A stretch of DNA of 64,000 bases from an uncultured virus (IMG/VR IMGVR_UViG_3300010883_027406) (lineage: Duplodnaviria > Heunggongvirae > Uroviricota > Caudoviricetes), in IMG/VR virus record IMGVR_UViG_3300010883_027406, positions 1-64,000 of that record, one strand, 5' to 3'. Made by a program: the position numbers and the translations under genes. Numbering within the stretch: the stretch's first letter is position 1; the number at the start of each line of letters is the position of its first letter. Shown piece after piece: positions 28,555 to 36,636 of this stretch. The notes below the pieces were generated by a model that worked only from the letters and a program-made list of their open reading frames with translations, did not search any database and was not told the DNA's origin.

Positions 28555-29115
28555 ATGTCAAAAACAAAAATTCCTATTAACGAAAAACCTCCCCATGAAC
28601 GAGTTAAAGTTGGGAAGAAGAATGAAAAGAGAGTTATAAATTGTCTCAACAAGCATCATAATTGGAATCTTGAGGAGGCAACAAGAGAAGAAGACAGAAT
28701 AGAAAAAGTGGATTGTTATGAGGTTTCAAAAACGGGCAAGAGATTAGCTGCCCAAGTGAAAACTCGTGTTAGTGGAGATGATATATTAGTTGATATTTTT
28801 GAGCCTTATTACGGTATAGATGATGATAGAACCAAAAAAGGCCGTGATACATGTAGAGATTATGATCTTTATATTTGCCTTTCTAAGGACGGCAAAACTA
28901 TAAGAGTTGTTAATGGGAAGGCTCTTAAAAGAATGCTTAGAAAGTTGGCTAATAAATGGAAGAGTGAAAACTGCCGACTTCCATTTACGTTTGATAATGA
29001 TTGTGAATTTAAATGGCACAGAGACAGGTGGAGTGGCGTTCCTAAATTGTTATGCTTCATTCCTCCTGAAGTTTTTAAAACCGGCACAGAGATTACTTTT
29101 TTTGACATGAAGTGA
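28555..29115 (+). CDS. hypothetical protein, possible PD-(D/E)xK nuclease
   Basis: G...E, ED...KVD, QVKTR pattern. Confidence 0.5.
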   Translation: MSKTKIPINEKPPHERVKVGKKNEKRVINCLNKHHNWNLEEATREEDRIEKVDCYEVSKTGKRLAAQVKTRVSGDDILVDIFEPYYGIDDDRTKKGRDTCRDYDLYICLSKDGKTIRVVNGKALKRMLRKLANKWKSENCRLPFTFDNDCEFKWHRDRWSGVPKLLCFIPPEVFKTGTEITFFDMK

Positions 29116-29119
29116 AATT

Positions 29120-29275
29120 ATGGATATCAATAAATTTTTGTTCTCTCCTTGGACAATGATTCGGGTTAACAAGGAAACGTTTTTTAAACAGCACCCAATG
29201 AATGATGAGACTAGTTTTGTTTTAATTGAATCTCGTAGTTATATTTACACTCAAAAAGAACAGCTTTTAAAGTAA
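29120..29275 (+). CDS. 51-aa hypothetical protein (absent from the ORF track)
   Basis: MDINKFLFSPWTMIRV...QLLK fills the gap before dnaE-N. Confidence 0.45.
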   Translation: MDINKFLFSPWTMIRVNKETFFKQHPMNDETSFVLIESRSYIYTQKEQLLK

Positions 29276-29287
29276 GAAGTTTGATCT

Positions 29288-30634
29288 ATGAAACACGAAG
29301 TTTGTGGATTTGAACATTTGCATTTGCACACGGATTTCAGCCTCCTAGATGGATTTGGGAAAGTTGAAGAATATGCTGCTCGTGCCCCAGAGATAAATCA
29401 GCAATTTCTCTGCGTAACAGATCATGGGATGCTAGGGGCTGTTCCTCGCCAAATAAAATCTTGTGAAGAAAATGGCATTAAGCCCATATTTGGCTGTGAG
29501 CTTTACGTGAACCCCATGCAGCCTGAGGCAAAAGATTTGTCTGAGTTGCATGCTGTCACTTCTGAATTTGGCCCAGAGGAAAAAGAAAAGCTTAGAAAGT
29601 CTTATCATCTTTTAGCCATTGCATATAATGATGTTGGATATAGCAATTTGGTTAATCTTTGTTCATGGGCGTGGCTCAATGGGTATTATTACCGGCCCAG
29701 AGTTAATCATGAAATGCTGATGAAACATAAAGAAGGTCTTATTTTTACTTCTTGTTGTATCAACAGCGAAATCGGGCAGGCGTTTCTTAAGGAAGGGGAA
29801 GAATCTGCCTTTGCTATGGTTGAAAAATATATGGCCATGTTTGGTGAAAATTTTTATCTTGAACTTATGATGTTAGATTTTGATAAGCAAAAGCCATATG
29901 ATAAGTTTATTATAAAAGCTCATGATAAGTATGGGATTCCTATAGAACTTACTCAAGATTGTCATTATTGTTATAAAGAAGATTCACACTACCAAAGATT
30001 GACCCTGATGATACAGGGGAATAAGACAGTTGAGGATGTTCGAAAAGCAGAAGAGCAAGGGACTGCGGGAGACATGTTTGAGTTGCAAGATAAGAATCTT
30101 TGGATGAAATCTGAGGATGAGCTTAATGAAAAATGGGAAAGCGATTATTCAGATGTTATTGATTATGATTTGTTCAAACAGGCTAAAAAAACTACTGTAG
30201 ACGTTTGCAATAAAGCTAAGGGAGTTGAGTTAGATAGGTCTATTAAATTGCCGCAAATACCTGACGCAAATGAAAAGCTTATGGAAGCCATCATCGTTGG
30301 ATTTAAAAGCAGGAACCTTCCTAAGACTAATAAGTATTTAAGTCGCATTAAGGAAGAGTATGAATTAATTTCCAAAAAAGAATTTTCTAGTTATTTCCTT
30401 ATACAAAAGATGATGACGGATGAGGCCCGTAGGGTGTGCCCCAAGCTTTTGGGCTGGGGGGACGGGTCAGAGGCAGTTGGTGCAGGTAGAGGGAGTGCTG
30501 TAGGGAGTTTGATTTGTTATTGTCTTTATATAACGGACGTAGACCCAGTCCACCATGATCTTTTGTTTTCTAGATTTATGAGTGAGGCTCGTGGCGGTAA
30601 ATCTATGAAGCTTAGATTTTCTAAGGTCGGCTGA
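29288..30634 (+). CDS. dnaE: DNA polymerase III alpha, N-terminal fragment (PHP domain plus start of palm)
   Basis: HLHLHTDFSLLDG, TDHG, GCELY, YYRPR, DCHY; YL.RIKEE..LI....FSSYFL, GRGSAVGSL, DLLFSRF; stops before the PDxDxD motif. Confidence 0.92.
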   Translation: MKHEVCGFEHLHLHTDFSLLDGFGKVEEYAARAPEINQQFLCVTDHGMLGAVPRQIKSCEENGIKPIFGCELYVNPMQPEAKDLSELHAVTSEFGPEEKEKLRKSYHLLAIAYNDVGYSNLVNLCSWAWLNGYYYRPRVNHEMLMKHKEGLIFTSCCINSEIGQAFLKEGEESAFAMVEKYMAMFGENFYLELMMLDFDKQKPYDKFIIKAHDKYGIPIELTQDCHYCYKEDSHYQRLTLMIQGNKTVEDVRKAEEQGTAGDMFELQDKNLWMKSEDELNEKWESDYSDVIDYDLFKQAKKTTVDVCNKAKGVELDRSIKLPQIPDANEKLMEAIIVGFKSRNLPKTNKYLSRIKEEYELISKKEFSSYFLIQKMMTDEARRVCPKLLGWGDGSEAVGAGRGSAVGSLICYCLYITDVDPVHHDLLFSRFMSEARGGKSMKLRFSKVG

Positions 30635-31125
30635 TGAAAATAGTGCTAACAGGCGGTACTTTTTGCAAATCATATTGCCCTCATCAAGGCTCCATGATAT
30701 TTGATCGTGACAAGGCTCTGGCTGCATTTTATGATATTGTCAAATTTGTTAGATTCATTAATAAACCAAAAATTGCTGTATGGGATTTAGTAGATTCTCG
30801 TGAAATGCAGACTTCTGATCGAGAAGATCTTTATTGTTTTTGTGAATCATTGGATGATGATAAAATTGTTATTGTTCACGGCACAGATATGATGCAATAC
30901 ACGCTGGAACATTTCTCCCAGAAGAAAGATCTGTCAAAAACATTTGTTTTTACAGGATCTTGGGTTCCTTGGGCACATGACAAATCAGATGCAGTGTTTA
31001 ATTTGGGCTATGCGATGGCTTGTGCTGATTATAAGAAAAAGGGCGCATACATAGCTATGAATGGACATTGTTTTGCTGATGATGTTAAGAAAAATTGGAA
31101 AGCACTAAAGTATTATAAGGATTGA
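30634..31125 (+). CDS. short asparaginase-like protein (N-terminal domain only)
   Basis: LTGGT, HGTD, VFTGS, SDAVFNL, YIAMNG. Confidence 0.8.
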   Translation: MKIVLTGGTFCKSYCPHQGSMIFDRDKALAAFYDIVKFVRFINKPKIAVWDLVDSREMQTSDREDLYCFCESLDDDKIVIVHGTDMMQYTLEHFSQKKDLSKTFVFTGSWVPWAHDKSDAVFNLGYAMACADYKKKGAYIAMNGHCFADDVKKNWKALKYYKD

Positions 31126-31129
31126 AGTT

Positions 31130-31321
31130 ATGAAAATAACAATAGAATCTCGTGGAGAGTTGCCCAATAACTGTAAGGGTTGGGTTGTTAAGATAGAAGA
31201 TGGAGAATATGTGCAAGAGACGGCGTTTTCTTTGTTTGAAGAAGTATCTGCTTTTCTTGAAGATGGTTTTTGCGTGGACGACCCTGATCGATGGATGGAA
31301 GGTTTGGCCGGTAAGCCTTAA
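31130..31321 (+). CDS. hypothetical protein
   Basis: 63 aa; AGGA RBS. Confidence 0.55.
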   Translation: MKITIESRGELPNNCKGWVVKIEDGEYVQETAFSLFEEVSAFLEDGFCVDDPDRWMEGLAGKP

Positions 31322-31465
31322 TTAATTATCTTCTTTTTTAAAAGAGACTGACTCAAGCCTCTGTTTCTCGGCGTTCCATTTACACTCGTAGATCTTTTGG
31401 GGCTTGCGCCCTCCTTCCTCTTCAATCTTATCTTTTTCTTTTTTAAATGATAATATTTTAGTCAT
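31322..31465 (-). CDS. 47-aa hypothetical protein MTKILSFKKEKDKIEE... (absent from the ORF track)
   Basis: Translated by hand; overlaps the upstream stop and exactly fills the gap. Confidence 0.45.
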   Translation of the reverse strand: MTKILSFKKEKDKIEEEGGRKPQKIYECKWNAEKQRLESVSFKKEDN

Positions 31466-32648
31466 CAGATTTTTTAGATTTCTTCCATTCTTCATGAGTT
31501 TTGTTTTTGTGAACTGAATTGCAAGATTTGAAAGGGTGATCCTTCATCATGTCAAATTTGGACTTTCCCTTATCCTTGGATTCTTCCTTATCATCCTTGG
31601 ATTCTTCCTTATCATCATCCTTGGATTCTTCCTTATCAGATTTTTTAGATTTTTTCCATTCTTCATGAGTTTTGCCAGGATGAGCTTTCTTGCATGATTT
31701 GCCAGGATGATCCTGCATCATTTTAAAAGCATCTTTTGATTCAACGTATTTTCCGAATGCGCTTTCGTCCACGCCAGCATCCCAACTGCCAGCTTTTTGT
31801 TCGTCTTCATGATCATGATCATGATCATAATCATCATCGTGTCGGTGCCATCGTGGTGAACCAGACCCTTGATCAATGTCATGTTTTTTTAACATTTCTA
31901 CTATTTTGGGGAAATGTTCATCTAAAAGCTCTTCAATATCTTCTCTTTCTACTTCAAGGTCGGATGCAACTTGATGAAGTATTTCTTTTGATGATTTGTG
32001 TTTGTATTCTGGGCTGTGCATAATTGACATTATTTTAGCATTCACCATGTCCCCGAATTTAGGATCGGCAGAATGACCGTGTCCTACTGATTTTTGCTCG
32101 ATGGCAAACATGCCTTTAGCGTGTTTTGAGTTGACCAGAGGAGCGTCCATGTCGTCTAGACCTGCATCTTTGTACATTTGAATGATTTGATCTGCGGTTG
32201 CCTTATCAACTTCTGAACCTTTGGGATGTTTGGCGTATATTTGTTTATCTAGCTGATTGCTGTCGTGCAACCCTTTCTCATTCTGTTGGCGTTGCGTCCT
32301 GATCAACGTCCTACCACTTCCGTCCGGGGCGGGGTTTTTTCCGCCCTGCGAAAGTTGAGCAAAATAATTATCAGTGGAACCAAGCGATTTCGCCTGCTCG
32401 TCTAAGACATCAACTATTTTTTTTTTGGAGGAAGGAACTTCAGTATCGGGTTCCCAAACCATGTTTTTATCGCCAACGTCGCCTAAACCTTGATCACCTT
32501 TAACTTTAATTCCTTTGCCCACATAGGGAGCCTTGTGGCCTTTAGGAGCCTTTGGAATGCTGTCGTGGTAGTCTGCCTTTAGTTCTTCTCTAGGTTTGAC
32601 TAGTTTGCCTTTTTTATTAACGTATTCTTTGAATGATTTAAATTTCAT
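31458..32648 (-). CDS. charged low-complexity protein with MKFKSFKEY leader (candidate internal head protein)
   Basis: Start set at 32648 (overlap with pspC stop, AGGA RBS); His/Asp tract; duplicated HPxKSCxxxHxxKTHEEWKK; DKEESKD repeats. Confidence 0.7.
   Translation of the reverse strand: MKFKSFKEYVNKKGKLVKPREELKADYHDSIPKAPKGHKAPYVGKGIKVKGDQGLGDVGDKNMVWEPDTEVPSSKKKIVDVLDEQAKSLGSTDNYFAQLSQGGKNPAPDGSGRTLIRTQRQQNEKGLHDSNQLDKQIYAKHPKGSEVDKATADQIIQMYKDAGLDDMDAPLVNSKHAKGMFAIEQKSVGHGHSADPKFGDMVNAKIMSIMHSPEYKHKSSKEILHQVASDLEVEREDIEELLDEHFPKIVEMLKKHDIDQGSGSPRWHRHDDDYDHDHDHEDEQKAGSWDAGVDESAFGKYVESKDAFKMMQDHPGKSCKKAHPGKTHEEWKKSKKSDKEESKDDDKEESKDDKEESKDKGKSKFDMMKDHPFKSCNSVHKNKTHEEWKKSKKSDD
31569..31638 (-). 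repeat. ~21-24 nt coding tandem repeat (DKEESKD) x3
   Basis: atccttggattcttccttatc repeated three times. Confidence 0.85.
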
Positions 32649-32827
32649 AGTTCTTCCTCTTTGGGCATTAGTAACCAAAGTAATAAGTAGATAATTGGCC
32701 CGACGCCAAAAGCCAAAAAACCTACAACAAATACAAGCCTCATTATTATAGGGTCAATTTCTAAGGATTTTGCTAGTCCTGAGCATATCCCTGCGATTAC
32801 TTTATTGTTTGAATCTCTCTTAACCAT
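32645..32827 (-). CDS. pspC: PspC-domain membrane protein
   Basis: KR....KVIAGICSGLA....DP...RL.F......G...YLLLWLLMP. Confidence 0.9.
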   Translation of the reverse strand: MVKRDSNNKVIAGICSGLAKSLEIDPIIMRLVFVVGFLAFGVGPIIYLLLWLLMPKEEEL

Positions 32828-32887
32828 ATTGGCCCTTTCGTATATACTATTTATGTATTAATTTCTTATTTTAAACTAAATATACAC

Positions 32888-33070
32888 ATGAAAAACATAG
32901 AAGGTTTAGACCTTAAAAAGGCTGAGACATTATTAGAAAAAGAAAACAAGGTTATTCGTGTAGCTAAGTTGGATGGCGAACCGCTCATTTTGACTTGTGA
33001 CTATATGCTTGGCAGAGTTAATGTTGAAGTTGAAAACGATAAGGTTGTTTCCATAATTGGAGAATTTTAG
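32888..33070 (+). CDS. peptidase inhibitor I78/potato-inhibitor-like small protein
   Basis: GL....AE......RV....G....TCDY..GRVNVEV....V....G. Confidence 0.6.
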   Translation: MKNIEGLDLKKAETLLEKENKVIRVAKLDGEPLILTCDYMLGRVNVEVENDKVVSIIGEF

Positions 33071-33098
33071 TTTACAATTTTCTTTTTTGAAGTATAAT
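33071..33098 (+). promoter_or_regulatory. sigma70-like promoter of tmRNA
   Basis: TTTACA-N16-TATAAT ending 13 nt before the tmRNA 5' end. Confidence 0.6.
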
Positions 33099-33111
33099 TA
33101 TAATAGACTTA

Positions 33112-33467
33112 GGGCTGGAAATGGTATCGATTGGCTGTTGAGTTCTTGAGTTGCCTGTAGGAGTTGATCGGAAGGCTCCTTAAAAATCCGATTAAAAATT
33201 TAGTTGACAAAACTAATTTCGCTATGGCTGCTTAATTATAAGCAACCCAAGTTTCAAAGGTCTGCCAGTGACGTTTGACAACTTGCCGCAATACTGGCTG
33301 CGTTCAAAACAAATCAAACTACTTTTGAACTAAGATTCGTTGTTTGATAGTTGATTTAAACCTTTGTTTGTTGTGGTTTAATGATGCGAAACTCAAACAT
33401 CAAACTATACAGGTAGACGCTTTTGAATAGGTAGTGCAAGACACGGGTTCGACTCCCGTCCGGTCCA
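33112..33467 (+). ncRNA. ssrA: transfer-messenger RNA
   Basis: 5' GGGCTGG pairs with CCGGTCC-A (G3:U wobble, Ala identity); T-arm acggg-TTCGACT-cccgt; tag ORF 33206-33235 (A)DKTNFAMAA* after aaaaatttagtt; CCA not encoded. Confidence 0.93.
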
Positions 33468-33470
33468 CTG

Positions 33471-33504
33471 AAGCTCCCCTCGCATTGCGAGGGGAGCTTT
33501 TTTT
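33471..33504 (+). terminator. Rho-independent terminator of tmRNA
   Basis: aagctcccctcgca-t-tgcgaggggagctt followed by a T-run. Confidence 0.9.
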
Positions 33505-33550
33505 GTTATGATGTTGTTTTTTCAATTTATATGCATTAAACTTGATTTTC

Positions 33551-36052
33551 ATGGATTCTAAAGAAAAATTGATTGGTTTGTGCGCTCAATTTCTTAAAAA
33601 GAAGGGGCTTGATGATGATGCGCATAAGAACAGATTAAAAGAAGAATTAAAAGAAATTGAGATTCAAAACGAATACGATTATTTTGTAGATCTTTATGAA
33701 GAAGGAATCAAAGCTAGCAATAATGAAAATAATTTGCTTATTCCTTATCTTTTGGGCATGGTAGATGAGTTTGATATAAATTCTAGTTATGGTTTTGTTT
33801 ATGGCGATTTCCCTGATGTCGATATAGATTATCTTCCCACGGTGCGAGATTATTTAAAAAATGAATGGGCACCGAAGTTTTTTGGAGAAGACAAGGTTTG
33901 TAATATTGGAAATTATACTACTTTTGGAATTAAGAGTGCTTTAATTGACATGGTTCGGGTGCATTGTGGCAACAGGGAAGAGATGCTTAATATGACAACC
34001 CAGCTTGGGATTAAGGATAGTGCTGGTAATAATTTAACTTGGGAAAAAGCTTTAGAGGAAAATCCATTATTATTTAAATATTGTGAAGAGAATCCTGATA
34101 TATCAATTGCCGCACAAAAAATGATTGGAAGAAATCGTGGCATGGGGATGCATGCTGGTGGTTTAATCGTGTCTAGTTCTCGGATTGACAATCTTGTCCC
34201 TCTTGTTAGGGGAAAAGATAAAACTCAAGTTTCTGCGTGGGTAGAGGGGTTGAGCGGTCAGGACTTACAGCCTGTTGGGTTGGTGAAGTTTGATCTTTTG
34301 GTTATTACAAATAACCTTCAGGTGGCCAAGTGTTGTAAACTAATTAAAGAGCGACACGGTGTTGAACATATTAATGCCCTGCCAGGTCAGTCAGATTGGT
34401 CTGATATAGCTTATTTGAATGATCCCAAAGCGTTGGAAATGGCTAATCGTGGAGATCTTAAATGTGTTTTTCAATTTGATAGTGATGGAATTCGTCAACT
34501 TGCAAAAATGGGAGGCGTAACATCATTTGATGATTTGGTTGCTTATACTTCTCTCTATCGACCTGGCCCGTTGCAAGAGAAAATGCATGACACTTATACG
34601 AATAGGAAAAGAGGAATAGAAGAATATGAAATGAATCCTTTGATAGAGCCTGTTTTGGGTGTTACTTATGGCGTAATGGTCTATCAGGAACAGATAATGC
34701 AGATGTTAAATGTGGTGGGAAATATTCCGCTTAGAGATTGTGAGATTGTTAGGAAGGCAATCTCTAAGAAGCAAGTAGAAAAATTTACTAAATATAAGGA
34801 AATGTTTGTTGAGAATGGGCAATTTAATTTAGATGAATCTAAAGAGAATGTAGAAGAGTTGTGGAAGCAAATAGAAGCATTTGCTGGTTATGGTTTTAAT
34901 AAAAGCCATGCTTGTGCTTATACTTATTTGTCATCTCGTTTGTTGTGGTTAAAGGCTCATTACCCGATTGAGTTTTTTGCGTCTATTTTAAGCTGTGAGG
35001 GAAATTCGGATAAAATTAGAGAATATAAAATTGAATCATCGCAACATGGTGTAGAGGTTTGTCCTTTGGACATTAATAAGTCTAATGTTGAGTTTAGTAT
35101 AGTTGATGATAAGATATTTTTTGGGATATCAAATATAAAAGGAATTGGAGAAGTTCCCGCTGCGAAAATTGCTTCCGGTGGGCCTTATAATTCGTTTAAG
35201 GAATTTCTTAATTCCTTTGGCACGGATGCGAATGTGATAAAGCCGTTTGTGTGTTTGAAAGTTTTTGAAGATGCCGAACCAGTTAAGCTTTATAAGTACT
35301 ATGAGTTTTATAAGTCCCAAAGAAAGAAGATAGAGGACCGTAGGAAAAGATTTCAAAAGTCAATGGAAAAGTATCAAGAAAAATTGCGGGATCTTTTGCC
35401 GGGTTTAGAAGAATTTGCTGTTTTCGATGACAGGTATTTTGATAAGTGGGAGGAAAAGTTTAATGTTGATCGTTGGAAGGAATTGGACAAATTAAGAAAA
35501 AGACGTAATCGTTCTATTGTAAATTTCAATGAAAAGGAAAAGCTGGGATCAGATATTGTGGATGTTTCTGAGTTTGAAGATGAGGGATATGAAATATATG
35601 ATGATGATCTTTTGGAATTGTTAAATAATGAACAGTTGGCTGAGTATAAGTTTTATGGATTTGGCTGGATTCATCCTTTGCAAAATAGTCCTGATTTTGA
35701 TGGCAACAAAACGTTTGATCATTTTAGAGCGGAACATAATGTTTCTACTTGGGGCGTGGAAGTTGTAGTTGTTAAAGTAGAGCAAAAACTTTCAAAGAAT
35801 AAAAAAACCAAGTATTGGTTGATAGAGGTAGAAGATGCAAATTGGGAAAGGAATAGGGTGATTTTTTGGTCGGATGATTGGGTTCGTTGGAAGGAGGATG
35901 TGCAGGTGGGGAATATTTTAAAAATGAGAATGTCAAAACCTGATCCTCCTTTTAAGAGCTACAAGTTTGACTCTCAGCCGAGACATAAAAGGCATTTAAT
36001 TCCTAAAGAAAAATCTAATGACTTTAGAATACTAATGATGAACAAAGGATAA
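33551..36052 (+). CDS. dnaE: DNA polymerase III alpha, C-terminal fragment (catalytic palm, fingers, HhH, OB-like)
   Basis: PDVDIDY, GMHAGG, GLVKFDLL, VFQFDS, LYRPGP, YQEQIM, FAGYGFNKSHA.AY, WLKAHYP.EF, IKGIGE. Confidence 0.93.
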   Translation: MDSKEKLIGLCAQFLKKKGLDDDAHKNRLKEELKEIEIQNEYDYFVDLYEEGIKASNNENNLLIPYLLGMVDEFDINSSYGFVYGDFPDVDIDYLPTVRDYLKNEWAPKFFGEDKVCNIGNYTTFGIKSALIDMVRVHCGNREEMLNMTTQLGIKDSAGNNLTWEKALEENPLLFKYCEENPDISIAAQKMIGRNRGMGMHAGGLIVSSSRIDNLVPLVRGKDKTQVSAWVEGLSGQDLQPVGLVKFDLLVITNNLQVAKCCKLIKERHGVEHINALPGQSDWSDIAYLNDPKALEMANRGDLKCVFQFDSDGIRQLAKMGGVTSFDDLVAYTSLYRPGPLQEKMHDTYTNRKRGIEEYEMNPLIEPVLGVTYGVMVYQEQIMQMLNVVGNIPLRDCEIVRKAISKKQVEKFTKYKEMFVENGQFNLDESKENVEELWKQIEAFAGYGFNKSHACAYTYLSSRLLWLKAHYPIEFFASILSCEGNSDKIREYKIESSQHGVEVCPLDINKSNVEFSIVDDKIFFGISNIKGIGEVPAAKIASGGPYNSFKEFLNSFGTDANVIKPFVCLKVFEDAEPVKLYKYYEFYKSQRKKIEDRRKRFQKSMEKYQEKLRDLLPGLEEFAVFDDRYFDKWEEKFNVDRWKELDKLRKRRNRSIVNFNEKEKLGSDIVDVSEFEDEGYEIYDDDLLELLNNEQLAEYKFYGFGWIHPLQNSPDFDGNKTFDHFRAEHNVSTWGVEVVVVKVEQKLSKNKKTKYWLIEVEDANWERNRVIFWSDDWVRWKEDVQVGNILKMRMSKPDPPFKSYKFDSQPRHKRHLIPKEKSNDFRILMMNKG

Positions 36053-36099
36053 ATGTAAACTATATTATAAAGTGATCAATACTTATTGAGGTTTAACTT

Positions 36100-36636
36100 A
36101 TGATTGATAATGAAACAAAAGAAGAAATTGAAATAACAGAGGATAATTTTGAGGAGTATTTTTTTGATGTTCGAAAGCATGATCCTGAACGTGGTCAAAT
36201 TCTAGCTAGGTATATGACCAAAGCTGAATTTATAGATGGTTTCATGAAAAGAAACGTGATTTCGCTTCTTACGACACATAAAAATGCTGGTAATACTGCG
36301 CCTCAGGTCATGAGGAAGTTAGGACTTGCTCAAGAAGAGGACTCTATTAGTATATGTCGAGAAATAGCGGAGGATTTAATGAGTGGGATGTCTGAAGATG
36401 AGGTGGCTGAGAAGGCATACCCCTTTACGTTGGAATGTTTTTTTTATGCGGAAAAAGAGAATGTGCCCACAGATGATCCTCATTGGGACATTGTTTCTAT
36501 AAATAATTTGGATGAATTTTTGGAAGAAAATGAAGTTGAATCTAGCGAAATTGTGGACGATGTGGAAATTAGAACTAAGATAGTTTTTTCAGAAGATGAG
36601 GAAAAAGATAATATCGAGGATGATTCTGATAAGTAG
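36100..36636 (+). CDS. acidic hypothetical protein
   Basis: 178 aa; GAGG RBS. Confidence 0.7.
   Translation: MIDNETKEEIEITEDNFEEYFFDVRKHDPERGQILARYMTKAEFIDGFMKRNVISLLTTHKNAGNTAPQVMRKLGLAQEEDSISICREIAEDLMSGMSEDEVAEKAYPFTLECFFYAEKENVPTDDPHWDIVSINNLDEFLEENEVESSEIVDDVEIRTKIVFSEDEEKDNIEDDSDK

Follow-up and report, generated by a model that had tools for sequence, protein, structure and literature searches.

In cyanobacteria, the replicative polymerase DnaE is encoded by two distant genes, the products of which are joined through protein trans-splicing by the Ssp/Npu DnaE split intein; the split site lies in the fingers. T4-like phages possess other split enzymes, namely gp43 PolB (43A/43B) and Aeh1 NrdA, which is split by mobE. 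In these systems the two polypeptides reassemble non-covalently, unrelated genes lie between the halves, and homing-endonuclease cassettes are linked to them.

The closest published case to the locus described here is the intein-less split 'minimal' Pol III alpha, as described for group 2.2 (T4-like) jumbo phages by Iyer, Anantharaman, Krishnan, Burroughs and Aravind (2021, Viruses 13:63; PMC7824862). A sequence-only reading of the present locus had taken all known split DnaEs to be joined by inteins, and thereby missed this system. Here we report that a marine huge phage, together with thousands of relatives, encodes the bacterial-type replicative polymerase as two separate and strongly conserved proteins, cut through the catalytic centre.

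Two halves of dnaE

The window, i.e., the whole stretch of 64,000 nt analysed, comes from a marine huge phage, the record of which is a 17%-complete fragment. Gene 1 (P0001; plus strand, 29288..30634) encodes 448 aa comprising a PHP domain and the portion of the DnaE palm that is N-terminal and binds NTP. In Pfam, the protein matched PHP (E 1.5e-42) and, over profile positions 17-98 only, DNA_pol3_alpha (PF07733). Its sequence aligned to residues 6-458 of Taq alpha and 6-396 of the E. coli subunit (PDB sequence matches), and its AF2 model (pLDDT 90.5) matched Taq 2hpi with a Z of 35.8 and 2hnh with a Z of 33.8, the latter making gene 1 the equivalent of residues 1-399 of E. coli Pol III alpha. 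The full set of PHP metal ligands is present (H12, H14, D21, H46, E71, H107, C157, D224 and H226), invariant or nearly so in 73 relatives. The C-terminal helical module (aa 326-435; plus strand, 30263..30592) carries the GS motif as GRGS (30485-30496), followed by FSRF and R435. Conservation of the protein peaks at aa 397-435 (mean pairwise identity of 77%, 73 sequences), where R401, G402, S403, F427, R429, F430 and R435 are invariant (73/73).

Gene 2 (P0002; plus strand, 33551..36052) encodes 833 aa, counted from ATG, with a leader, the catalytic palm strands, thumb, fingers, HhH and a C-terminal OB fold. We assign its start to the ATG at 33551 because a homologue of 96% identity (P0124) starts with MDSKEK; the TTG at 33542, which the ORF tool gives as the start, is unlikely to be used, and the residue numbers of gene 2 given here count from this TTG, not from the ATG. 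Pfam detected DNA_pol3_alpha (PF07733, positions 100-259) and the fingers domain and HhH (PF17657, PF14579). From aa 89 onward the protein aligned to Taq 460-924, and to the E. coli subunit from residue 398 (PDB sequence matches). The AF2 model (pLDDT 88.9) matched Pol III alpha structures with a Z of 22, and its aa 717-836 matched OB folds with a Z of 9-10. The catalytic strand PDVDID (plus strand, 33812..33829) provides D92, D94 and D96, equivalent to E. coli D401, D403 and D405, and the third catalytic Asp, D251 in a KFD motif (plus strand, 34292..34294), corresponds to E. coli D555 by alignment to Taq; the E. coli residues are the catalytic Asps described in PMC3919608. All four Asps of gene 2 were invariant in 89/89 sequences, as was K249.

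As gene 1 aligns up to Taq 458 and gene 2 from Taq 460, the cut falls exactly between ...FSRFMSEAR and PDVDID, and passes through the catalytic centre. The division proposed from the letters alone, with PHP and GRGS on gene 1 and PDVDID onward on gene 2, was confirmed by Pfam, the PDB alignments and the models. Gene 1 had also been described as stopping at the canonical breakpoint. The cut itself (FSRF/PDVDID) stands, but the protein extends past it by a tail of 10 conserved residues, GG[KR]xMKxRF, and a few more (plus strand, 30593..30631). This tail is kept in both core and basal stand-alone gene-1 proteins, is basic, and has an amphipathic, strand-like pattern.

A putative two-chain polymerase

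We consider it likely, with a probability of about 0.8, that the DnaE-type (C-family) replicative polymerase of this phage is made of two separate proteins that form an obligate non-covalent pair with a composite active site. In the nucleotidyltransferase fold, the elements conserved as its core are strands 1, 2 and 5 together with the GS motif. Chain 1 would contribute proofreading through its PHP exonuclease and also the element by which the Pol-beta-like nucleotidyltransferase fold binds NTP, made up of strand 1, the GS motif, the next helices bearing the FSRF arginine, and R435, while chain 2 would give strand 2 onward, including the three metal-binding Asps, thumb, fingers, HhH and OB fold. 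By sequence, the catalytic motifs are retained complementarily in the two chains: with the GS/NTP-binding element on chain 1 and the metal-binding Asps on chain 2, the polymerase active site would therefore be composite. The same arrangement, with a separately expressed PHP half, had been put forward in the sequence-only reading, and all of our comparative tests lend it support.

The low-confidence parts of the otherwise confident monomer models are gene 1 aa 433-448 and gene 2 aa 88-96 and aa 237-241; pLDDT drops below 50 in the gene 1 tail and in the catalytic strand (aa 88-96). The weakly modelled tail and catalytic strand point to an interface, which would be formed by the basic amphipathic tail of gene 1, a candidate inter-subunit strand, and the catalytic strand of gene 2.

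The duplicated helical module

The leader of gene 2 (aa 4-88; plus strand, 33551..33805) bears the motif NENNLL[IV]PYLLG and has neither GRGS nor FSRF. Profile and model comparisons show that in these first ~85 aa the helical module from the end of gene 1 is genuinely present a second time, as (i) the leader profile matched the gene-1 C-terminus profile in hhalign (Prob 91%, E 1.1e-6; aa 5-49 on aa 326-371), (ii) the helices of the two modules match one-to-one between the two AF2 models, (iii) gene 2 is colinear with intact phage DnaEs from residues 2-19 onward, and (iv) gene 2 aa 66-88 and gene 1 aa 408-435 both align to one stretch of an intact relative (P0003). The overlap was mapped on E. 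coli DnaE: gene 1 covers 1-399, and the structural alignment of the gene 2 model begins at 283/284, the canonical module position. E. coli 284-399, ~115 residues, is represented twice across the two genes. The leader had been regarded as a second, decayed copy. The hhalign match upholds the former part, but decay is not borne out: mean pairwise identity among 89 relatives is 42% in the leader versus 37% in the OB domain, and E35, N61, N64 and L71 of the leader are invariant.

The leader could be read in another way, in which gene 2 alone is a complete polymerase, NENN replaces GRGS at the canonical site and binds dNTPs in an unusual manner, and gene 1 works independently, as a PHP exonuclease or an accessory subunit, its palm fragment serving as a docking handle only. 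Consistent with such a reading, the AF2 monomer folds the leader confidently (helices 6-20, 26-41, 45-53 and 66-70; pLDDT 84-94) at the position from which gene 2 aligns to E. coli alpha, and because the invariant N61 and N64 fall on Ser and Gly of GSxxG in one alignment register, gene 2 might conceivably have an unusual NTP site of its own. We nevertheless regard it as unlikely. GRGS-FSRF-R435, the most conserved part of gene 1, is invariant at the triphosphate-binding residues of the fold, which is hard to explain for a handle, and mini-inteins, found exactly between GRG and S in several gene-1 homologues, target this motif. Gene 2 aa 1-88 contains no GS motif and none of the conserved Arg of the region in the 89 relatives, and in the gene 2 model confidence is lowest at the catalytic strand. 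Moreover, a 57-kb phage (G004) encodes a PHP-less single-chain DnaE that starts at the same module boundary and retains GPARGS and LLFERF; therefore, GS loss tracks the split, not PHP loss.

Against the two-chain polymerase, the leader of the monomer model occupies the canonical module site, so that the gene 1 module cannot sit there unless the leader moves. The sequence-only reading had suggested that the pair might assemble by domain swapping of the duplicated segment. The split probably goes back to a partial duplication, after which each copy lost what the other kept; this would have left a catalytic-strand remnant on gene 1 and a full GS-less helical module on gene 2. The latter may now be kept for its structure, serving the gene 1 module as docking partner or placeholder.

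Absence of a joining device and the spacer

No intein had been visible in the letters, and Pfam matched none in either protein. Rfam over 29000-36300 gave the tmRNA only, with no intron or other RNA element; no boundary repeats were found, and no joints in DNA or RNA contigs. Since nothing is present to splice the halves, the active site is most likely built from two chains. One could imagine that the halves are rejoined by some concealed device, be it an atypical split intein, trans-splicing at the RNA level, a programmed rearrangement of the DNA or translational bypass, as the family is rich in inteins at other sites (gene 1 ~aa 70, ~aa 225 and 402/403; gene 2 ~aa 450) and a split intein rejoins the cyanobacterial DnaE. 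Besides the negative searches, such a device is made very improbable by the residues at the junctions: Gly-Gly follows R435, so there is no Cys/Ser nucleophile, and the leader ends in Tyr-Gly and then Asp/Glu, not in Asn followed by Cys/Ser/Thr. In addition, the leader is all-helical in the AF2 model rather than a HINT fold, and the halves lie on opposite strands in a complete relative (G001).

The two polypeptides would be transcribed and translated separately and then bind each other. The spacer proved to hold what had been noted in it, i.e., several ORFs (five: three on the plus and two on the minus strand), a tmRNA and a strong terminator. On the plus strand, a 163-aa gene with an asparaginase N-terminal-like domain (30634..31125; PF00710, E 2e-17), whose ATG overlaps the gene 1 stop (TGATG), is followed by a 63-aa ORF with no family match (31130..31321). 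The minus strand carries a His/Asp/Lys-rich, low-complexity 406-aa gene with internal repeats, one of 93 nt (31458..32678), and a 60-aa PspC-domain protein (32645..32827; PF04024, E 2.4e-21); RNA-library contigs at 31151-32825 (depth 9-11) match the 406-aa gene. A 60-aa plus-strand ORF (32888..33070) weakly resembles potato inhibitor I (17.5 bits, below the 24.5 cut-off). The tmRNA (plus strand, 33112..33470; ARAGORN; RF00023, 121.9 bits; tag DKTNFAMAA) is preceded by a promoter-like site at 33071-33098 (promoter scan 11/12), and its RNA contigs (33125-33458, depth 28-48) have adapters at both ends. The intrinsic terminator (plus strand, 33470..33500), with a 14-bp stem, nine G-C pairs and a T run, lies 50 nt upstream of gene 2. 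No endonuclease gene was found in the spacer. Given the strong terminator and the two minus-strand genes between them, gene 1 and gene 2 are probably expressed apart. RNA-library contigs match both genes, which is not proof of transcription because DNA can carry over into RNA libraries.

Conservation among relatives

Huge marine phages of a very large clade share the cut. A search at E<=1e-10 gave at least 883 stand-alone proteins of the gene 1 type, 445-480 aa in length, the best 120 showing 61-69% identity on contigs of up to 633 kb. For gene 2, 7915 of the 8000 candidates scored were relatives at E<=1e-30, and the PHP Pfam domain was absent from all of the best 120, which lie on contigs of up to 669 kb. 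Sought in huge-phage genomes, the same breakpoint recurs with open frames in relatives that number hundreds to thousands and share as little as 30-45% identity. They include the complete 511-kb phage G001, in which gene 2 (plus strand, at 485 kb) and gene 1 (minus strand, at 498 kb) are 10.7 kb apart and are the sole PF07733 matches in the genome; in another phage (G003), the halves are 9 kb apart.

The closest GenBank phage (LR756511.1, an uncultured huge phage) has an intact 1179-aa dnaE at the syntenic locus, 46-56% identical to the split halves. Since dnaE is intact and single-chain in some close relatives, this phage group can do without the split; yet the fragments appear to be under strong purifying rather than relaxed selection. 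The assembly of the locus is correct: at both gene ends, independent metagenome DNA contigs match the locus with 0 differences, and proteins of 95-96% identity with the same ends occur in other data sets. Alternatively, the locus might be read as a dnaE pseudogene, broken and surviving in two remnants, or as an artefact of assembly, with the host polymerase serving the phage. This reading might be suggested by the intact relative and the incomplete record, but is contradicted by the shared cut with open frames, the invariant catalytic residues in both halves and the independent contigs, and can be dismissed almost entirely.

Comparison with known systems

Like the system of T4-like jumbo phages (PMC7824862), the present one is an intein-less phage C-family catalytic module with an N-terminal NTP-binding and a C-terminal Mg2+-/DNA-binding unit; there, the genes of the two units lie far apart, and the units were proposed to come together as a single enzyme. 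To judge from that description, the two are set apart in that the published version is minimal, without PHP or other Pol III alpha domains, whereas a full PHP and the fingers, HhH and OB fold are present here. The published version also accompanies a family-B polymerase, whereas none was found in the complete genome G001. The present system also has the duplicated leader module and the conserved tail, neither of which is mentioned in the account of the split minimal enzyme in PMC7824862.

The cyanobacterial DnaE is alike in being encoded by two distant genes; the split site is different, and the phage proteins have neither intein fragments nor splice-competent junction residues. As in the genes-in-pieces of T4-like phages, an essential phage replication enzyme occurs as two polypeptides with unrelated genes between the halves, and would likewise reassemble non-covalently. 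Those cases concern other enzyme families and have no duplicated module, and the spacer here differs in lacking an endonuclease gene. Finally, single-chain DnaEs (Taq 2HPI/3E0D/4IQJ, E. coli 2HNH/5FKU, M. tuberculosis 5LEW/7PU7 and LR756511.1) share the domain order, catalytic residues and fold of the phage proteins, whereas here the enzyme is divided into two polypeptides, with ~115 residues doubled, an extra tail on the first and a GS-less leader on the second.

Position of the break

The C-family polymerase of this phage is encoded by two ORFs lying 2.9 kb apart, gene 1 (29288-30634, plus strand, 448 aa) and gene 2 (33551-36052, plus strand, 833 aa). The catalytic core is not contained in a single polypeptide, and independent contigs and relatives agree on this arrangement. 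A PHP domain was detected in gene 1 (Pfam, E = 1.5e-42), and the palm family PF07733 is divided between the two proteins, as gene 1 covers profile positions 17-98 only and gene 2 covers positions 100-259, followed in the latter by matches to the fingers (PF17657) and HhH (PF14579) families in Pfam. In sequence alignments with solved structures, gene 1 corresponds to residues 6-458 of Taq alpha and 6-396 of E. coli alpha, and gene 2 aligns from its residue 89 onward, starting at Taq 460 and E. coli 398. From where gene 1 ends and gene 2 starts in these alignments, the break lies exactly between ...LLFSRFMSEAR and PDVDID. This point falls inside the C-family-specific insert between the GS motif and nucleotidyltransferase strand 2 (PMC11646218). 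The model of gene 1 (pLDDT 90.5) matched residues 1-399 of E. coli 2hnh with a Z score of 33.8 and Taq 2hpi with a Z score of 35.8. The ATG at 33551, assigned earlier as the start of gene 2, is corroborated by a 96%-identical homologue that opens with MDSKEK.

Absence of a joining device

The cyanobacterial split-intein DnaE carries N- and C-intein fragments, with Cys or Ser at position 1, a terminal Asn, and Cys, Ser or Thr at position +1; the phage pair has none of these. No intein family of Pfam matched either protein. The break is flanked by Gly-Gly after R435 on one side, and by Tyr-Gly and then Asp/Glu before Pro-Asp on the other, residues which, to judge from the sequence, cannot support protein splicing. 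The leader of gene 2 (its first 85-88 residues) was modelled as helical, with no HINT fold. Taken together, these results bear out the initial impression that no intein resides at the split. An Rfam scan of the region returned the tmRNA only, and no joined reads across the halves were present among the matching contigs. We found no boundary repeats: those between the end of gene 1 and the start of gene 2 are short and at chance level, which rules out an excisable element between the halves.

Inteins do occur in relatives, at four sites or more, namely around aa 70 and aa 225 of gene 1, within its GRGS motif (between residues 402 and 403), and around aa 450 of gene 2. The carriers are the proteins P0012, P0148-P0166, P0128 and P0135 and the locus L006:9983-13852, some with LAGLIDADG domains. 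None of these inteins sits at the split.

Distribution of the split and soundness of the assembly

The IMG/VR record containing the window is 85 kb long and estimated to be 17% complete, so that the whole genome would be about 500 kb. The stretch recurs nearly verbatim in marine and seawater metagenomes of many studies dating from 2017 to 2025. When we looked for an assembly error, contigs of other studies were found to span 29238-31215 and 32281-35777; they show no differences, and none contains a joint. Both halves are also matched by contigs of two metatranscriptome libraries, as are a minus-strand gene and the tmRNA, the last at the greatest depth. At least 883 stand-alone gene-1-type proteins were recovered (E ≤ 1e-10), and a length-restricted search over a capped number of candidates yielded at least 7915 gene-2 relatives (E ≤ 1e-30). 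The PHP domain is absent from all of the best 120 of these gene-2 relatives, and many of the contigs are 200-670 kb long. A search of huge-phage relatives for the same breakpoint was successful, including in the complete 511-kb genome G001, where the halves, 10.7 kb from each other and on opposite strands, account for all PF07733 matches. In another split relative (G003), 9 kb separates the halves and gene 2 carries an in-frame intein. Distant stand-alone gene-1 proteins (30-44% identity) share the same end point, often with an RGG[KR]xM tail. The split is neither an accident nor an artefact.

A duplicated helical module

The sequence-only reading had taken the leader of gene 2 for a second, decayed copy of helices in gene 1. 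We set a profile of the first 88 residues of 24 gene-2 homologues against one built from the C-termini of 118 gene-1 homologues; the match has a probability of 91% and an E value of 1.1e-6, and places aa 5-49 colinearly on aa 326-371. The helices of the two models pair one to one (gene 2/gene 1: 6-20/327-341, 26-41/348-363, 45-53/367-388 and 66-70/408-412), and we accept the leader as a second copy. Alignments of intact phage DnaEs to gene 2 begin at residues 2-19 of the latter and cover the same DnaE residues as aa 326-435 of gene 1. The structural alignment of the gene 2 model with E. coli alpha begins at residue 283/284, so that the canonical enzyme is represented twice over ~115 residues (E. 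coli 284-399).

The supposed decay did not hold up when conservation was gauged by regional pairwise identity and invariant columns. Among 89 gene-2 relatives, mean pairwise identity is 42% in the leader, 37% in the OB fold and 56-63% in the catalytic core, and E35, N61, N64 and L71 of the leader, which has the motif NENNLL[IV]PYLLG, are invariant. Residues 55-88 of the leader can be placed on aa 374-392 of gene 1 (register A) or on aa 403-430 (register B), the latter being favoured by intact homologues. Whichever register is taken, the leader lacks GRGS, as had been noticed at the outset, together with the FSRF arginine and R435. Gene 1, for its part, extends past the canonical breakpoint into a conserved GG[KR]xMKxRF tail, which resembles a leftover of the catalytic strand in which basic residues stand in place of the Asps.

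A putative composite active site

D92, D94, D96 and D251 of gene 2 are present in 89 of 89 sequences, and D92, D94 and D251 align to the catalytic Asps of Taq and E. coli (the C-family trio on palm strands, D401, D403 and D555 in E. coli; residue roles according to PMC3919608). In gene 1, all 73 sequences retain R401, G402, S403, R429 and R435, and the protein is most conserved over aa 397-435 (77%). The GRGS signature expected before strand 2 occurs in gene 1 and is absent from gene 2, which has none of the NTP-binding residues; only the pair possesses the full set. With GRGS in every gene-1 sequence compared and the catalytic Asps in every gene-2 sequence compared, the proposal of a C-family polymerase on two chains is sustained. 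The nine PHP metal ligands of gene 1 (H12, H14, D21, H46, E71, H107, C157, D224 and H226) are invariant or nearly so. Gene 2 contains the fingers and HhH, and aa 717-836 of its model resemble OB folds (Z 9-10).

On the basis of sequence conservation and the models, we put at roughly 80% the probability that the two chains form an obligate heterodimer whose active site is composite, with the PHP proofreader on the NTP-binding chain. A complete 57-kb phage genome (IMGVR_UViG_3300049042_000288, L017:6400-9400) encodes a single-chain, 981-aa DnaE without PHP, which begins at the module boundary of gene 2 and keeps GPARGS and LLFERF. As this PHP-less, single-chain enzyme keeps GS, the loss of GS from gene 2 is tied to gene 1 being supplied in trans.

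In the monomer model of gene 2, the leader occupies the canonical module site; the poorly predicted parts of the monomer models are only the gene 1 tail, the gene 2 catalytic strand and aa 237-241 of gene 2. Either the leader would move when gene 1 binds, or gene 2 would be self-sufficient. It is tempting, albeit speculative and rather unlikely, to regard the GS-less leader as a built-in stand-in for the NTP-binding module, by which polymerisation would be licensed only with the proofreader attached. The leader would fill the module site in free chain 2, giving a soluble, inactive enzyme, and chain 1 would bring the true GRGS module and the PHP proofreader, upon which the leader would be displaced or re-docked. 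That gene 2, devoid of NTP-binding residues, is self-sufficient with gene 1 as an accessory draws on the same placement of the leader and strikes us as quite improbable. The obligate heterodimer is the reading that we retain below.

Spacer genes and expression

The stop of gene 1 overlaps, as TGATG, the start of a gene (30634-31125, plus strand) for a 163-aa asparaginase-like protein comprising the N-terminal domain only (Pfam, E = 2e-17), and this protein is predicted from the overlap to be translationally coupled to gene 1. The halves are separated by two genes on the minus strand and by a tmRNA that has a promoter-like site of its own, and a strong terminator stands 50 nt upstream of gene 2, so the halves cannot share one transcript. 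Separate expression of the halves, as originally envisaged, agrees with the intervening minus-strand genes and terminator.

One minus-strand gene (31458-32678) encodes a 406-aa His/Asp/Lys-rich protein with a 93-nt internal repeat and HDHDHD and KSKKSD runs, for which no family match was found; RNA-library contig depth over it is 9-11, above either polymerase half. A PHROGs search with eight ORFs, namely the five of the spacer and three flanking ones, gave no result. A tmRNA is found near dnaE both here, directly upstream of gene 2 (33112-33470), and in the genome with the intact gene, 1.9 kb upstream of dnaE (L001:11281-11633, minus strand). In two metatranscriptome libraries it appears as a discrete 334-nt contig (33125-33458), with adapters at both ends in one library and a depth of 28-48, the highest of the region. 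This suggests that the tmRNA is processed and abundant, and slightly shorter than the 357/359-nt gene call.

Evolution of the split

The locus is arranged colinearly with its counterpart in LR756511.1, an uncultured huge phage in which dnaE is intact (1179 aa). In the gene-1 tree, five close intact forms (L001:5839-9378, minus strand; P0151, P0159, P0163 and P0166) are nested within the split clade. In trees from 'quick' searches, with groups named after the tree was seen, the AU test rejected monophyly of all split rows for gene 1 (p = 1.9e-6) and did not reject it for gene 2 (p = 0.46). The rejection hinges on five basal split rows, as leaving these unconstrained gave p = 0.115. We treat a single old fission followed by re-fusion as a lead rather than as a finding. 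Conceivably, LR756511-like phages derive their intact dnaE from a gene that was split long ago and secondarily fused again, and the data suggest a possible loss of both tail and leader in such an event. The split would offer a clear example of gene fission via partial duplication and complementary loss.

Significance and comparison with known systems

C-family polymerases serve as the replicases of bacteria and are targets of antibiotics, and to our knowledge the GS motif shares one chain with the catalytic aspartates in all those studied. The pair described here would be a natural, full-size version with a two-protein active site, which a very large group of marine huge phages has maintained. 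It would provide a ready-made system for studying the relative positioning of the NTP-binding module and the metal site, and a route to studying the coupling between PHP proofreading and synthesis. It is also a warning for annotation, as pipelines label each half 'DNA polymerase III alpha' or hypothetical protein.

Our literature search turned up no paper on a full-size split in which a module is duplicated. In Weinheimer and Aylward (2022), PF07733 figures only as a marker for the largest cluster of marine jumbo phages. The nearest counterpart in print is the split minimal Pol III alpha of group 2.2 (T4-like) jumbo phages, which likewise has no intein (Iyer 2021, PMC7824862) and which, according to that paper, occurs alongside a family-B polymerase. 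In contrast, PF00136 (family-B polymerase) had no match in the complete G001 or in the 85-kb record (17% complete). G001 does carry a family-A polymerase domain match (62 bits) in a small PolA-like 409-aa ORF (L024, G001:37994-38653, minus strand). A search of G000 and G001 for the beta-clamp C-domain family gave no match, which is not evidence of absence. Compared by text, the form of Iyer 2021 resembles the phage pair in that the break separates NTP-binding from Mg2+/DNA-binding parts, the genes are distant and no intein is involved. The published form is described there as minimal, without PHP and other domains, whereas the phage pair has PHP, fingers, HhH and OB.
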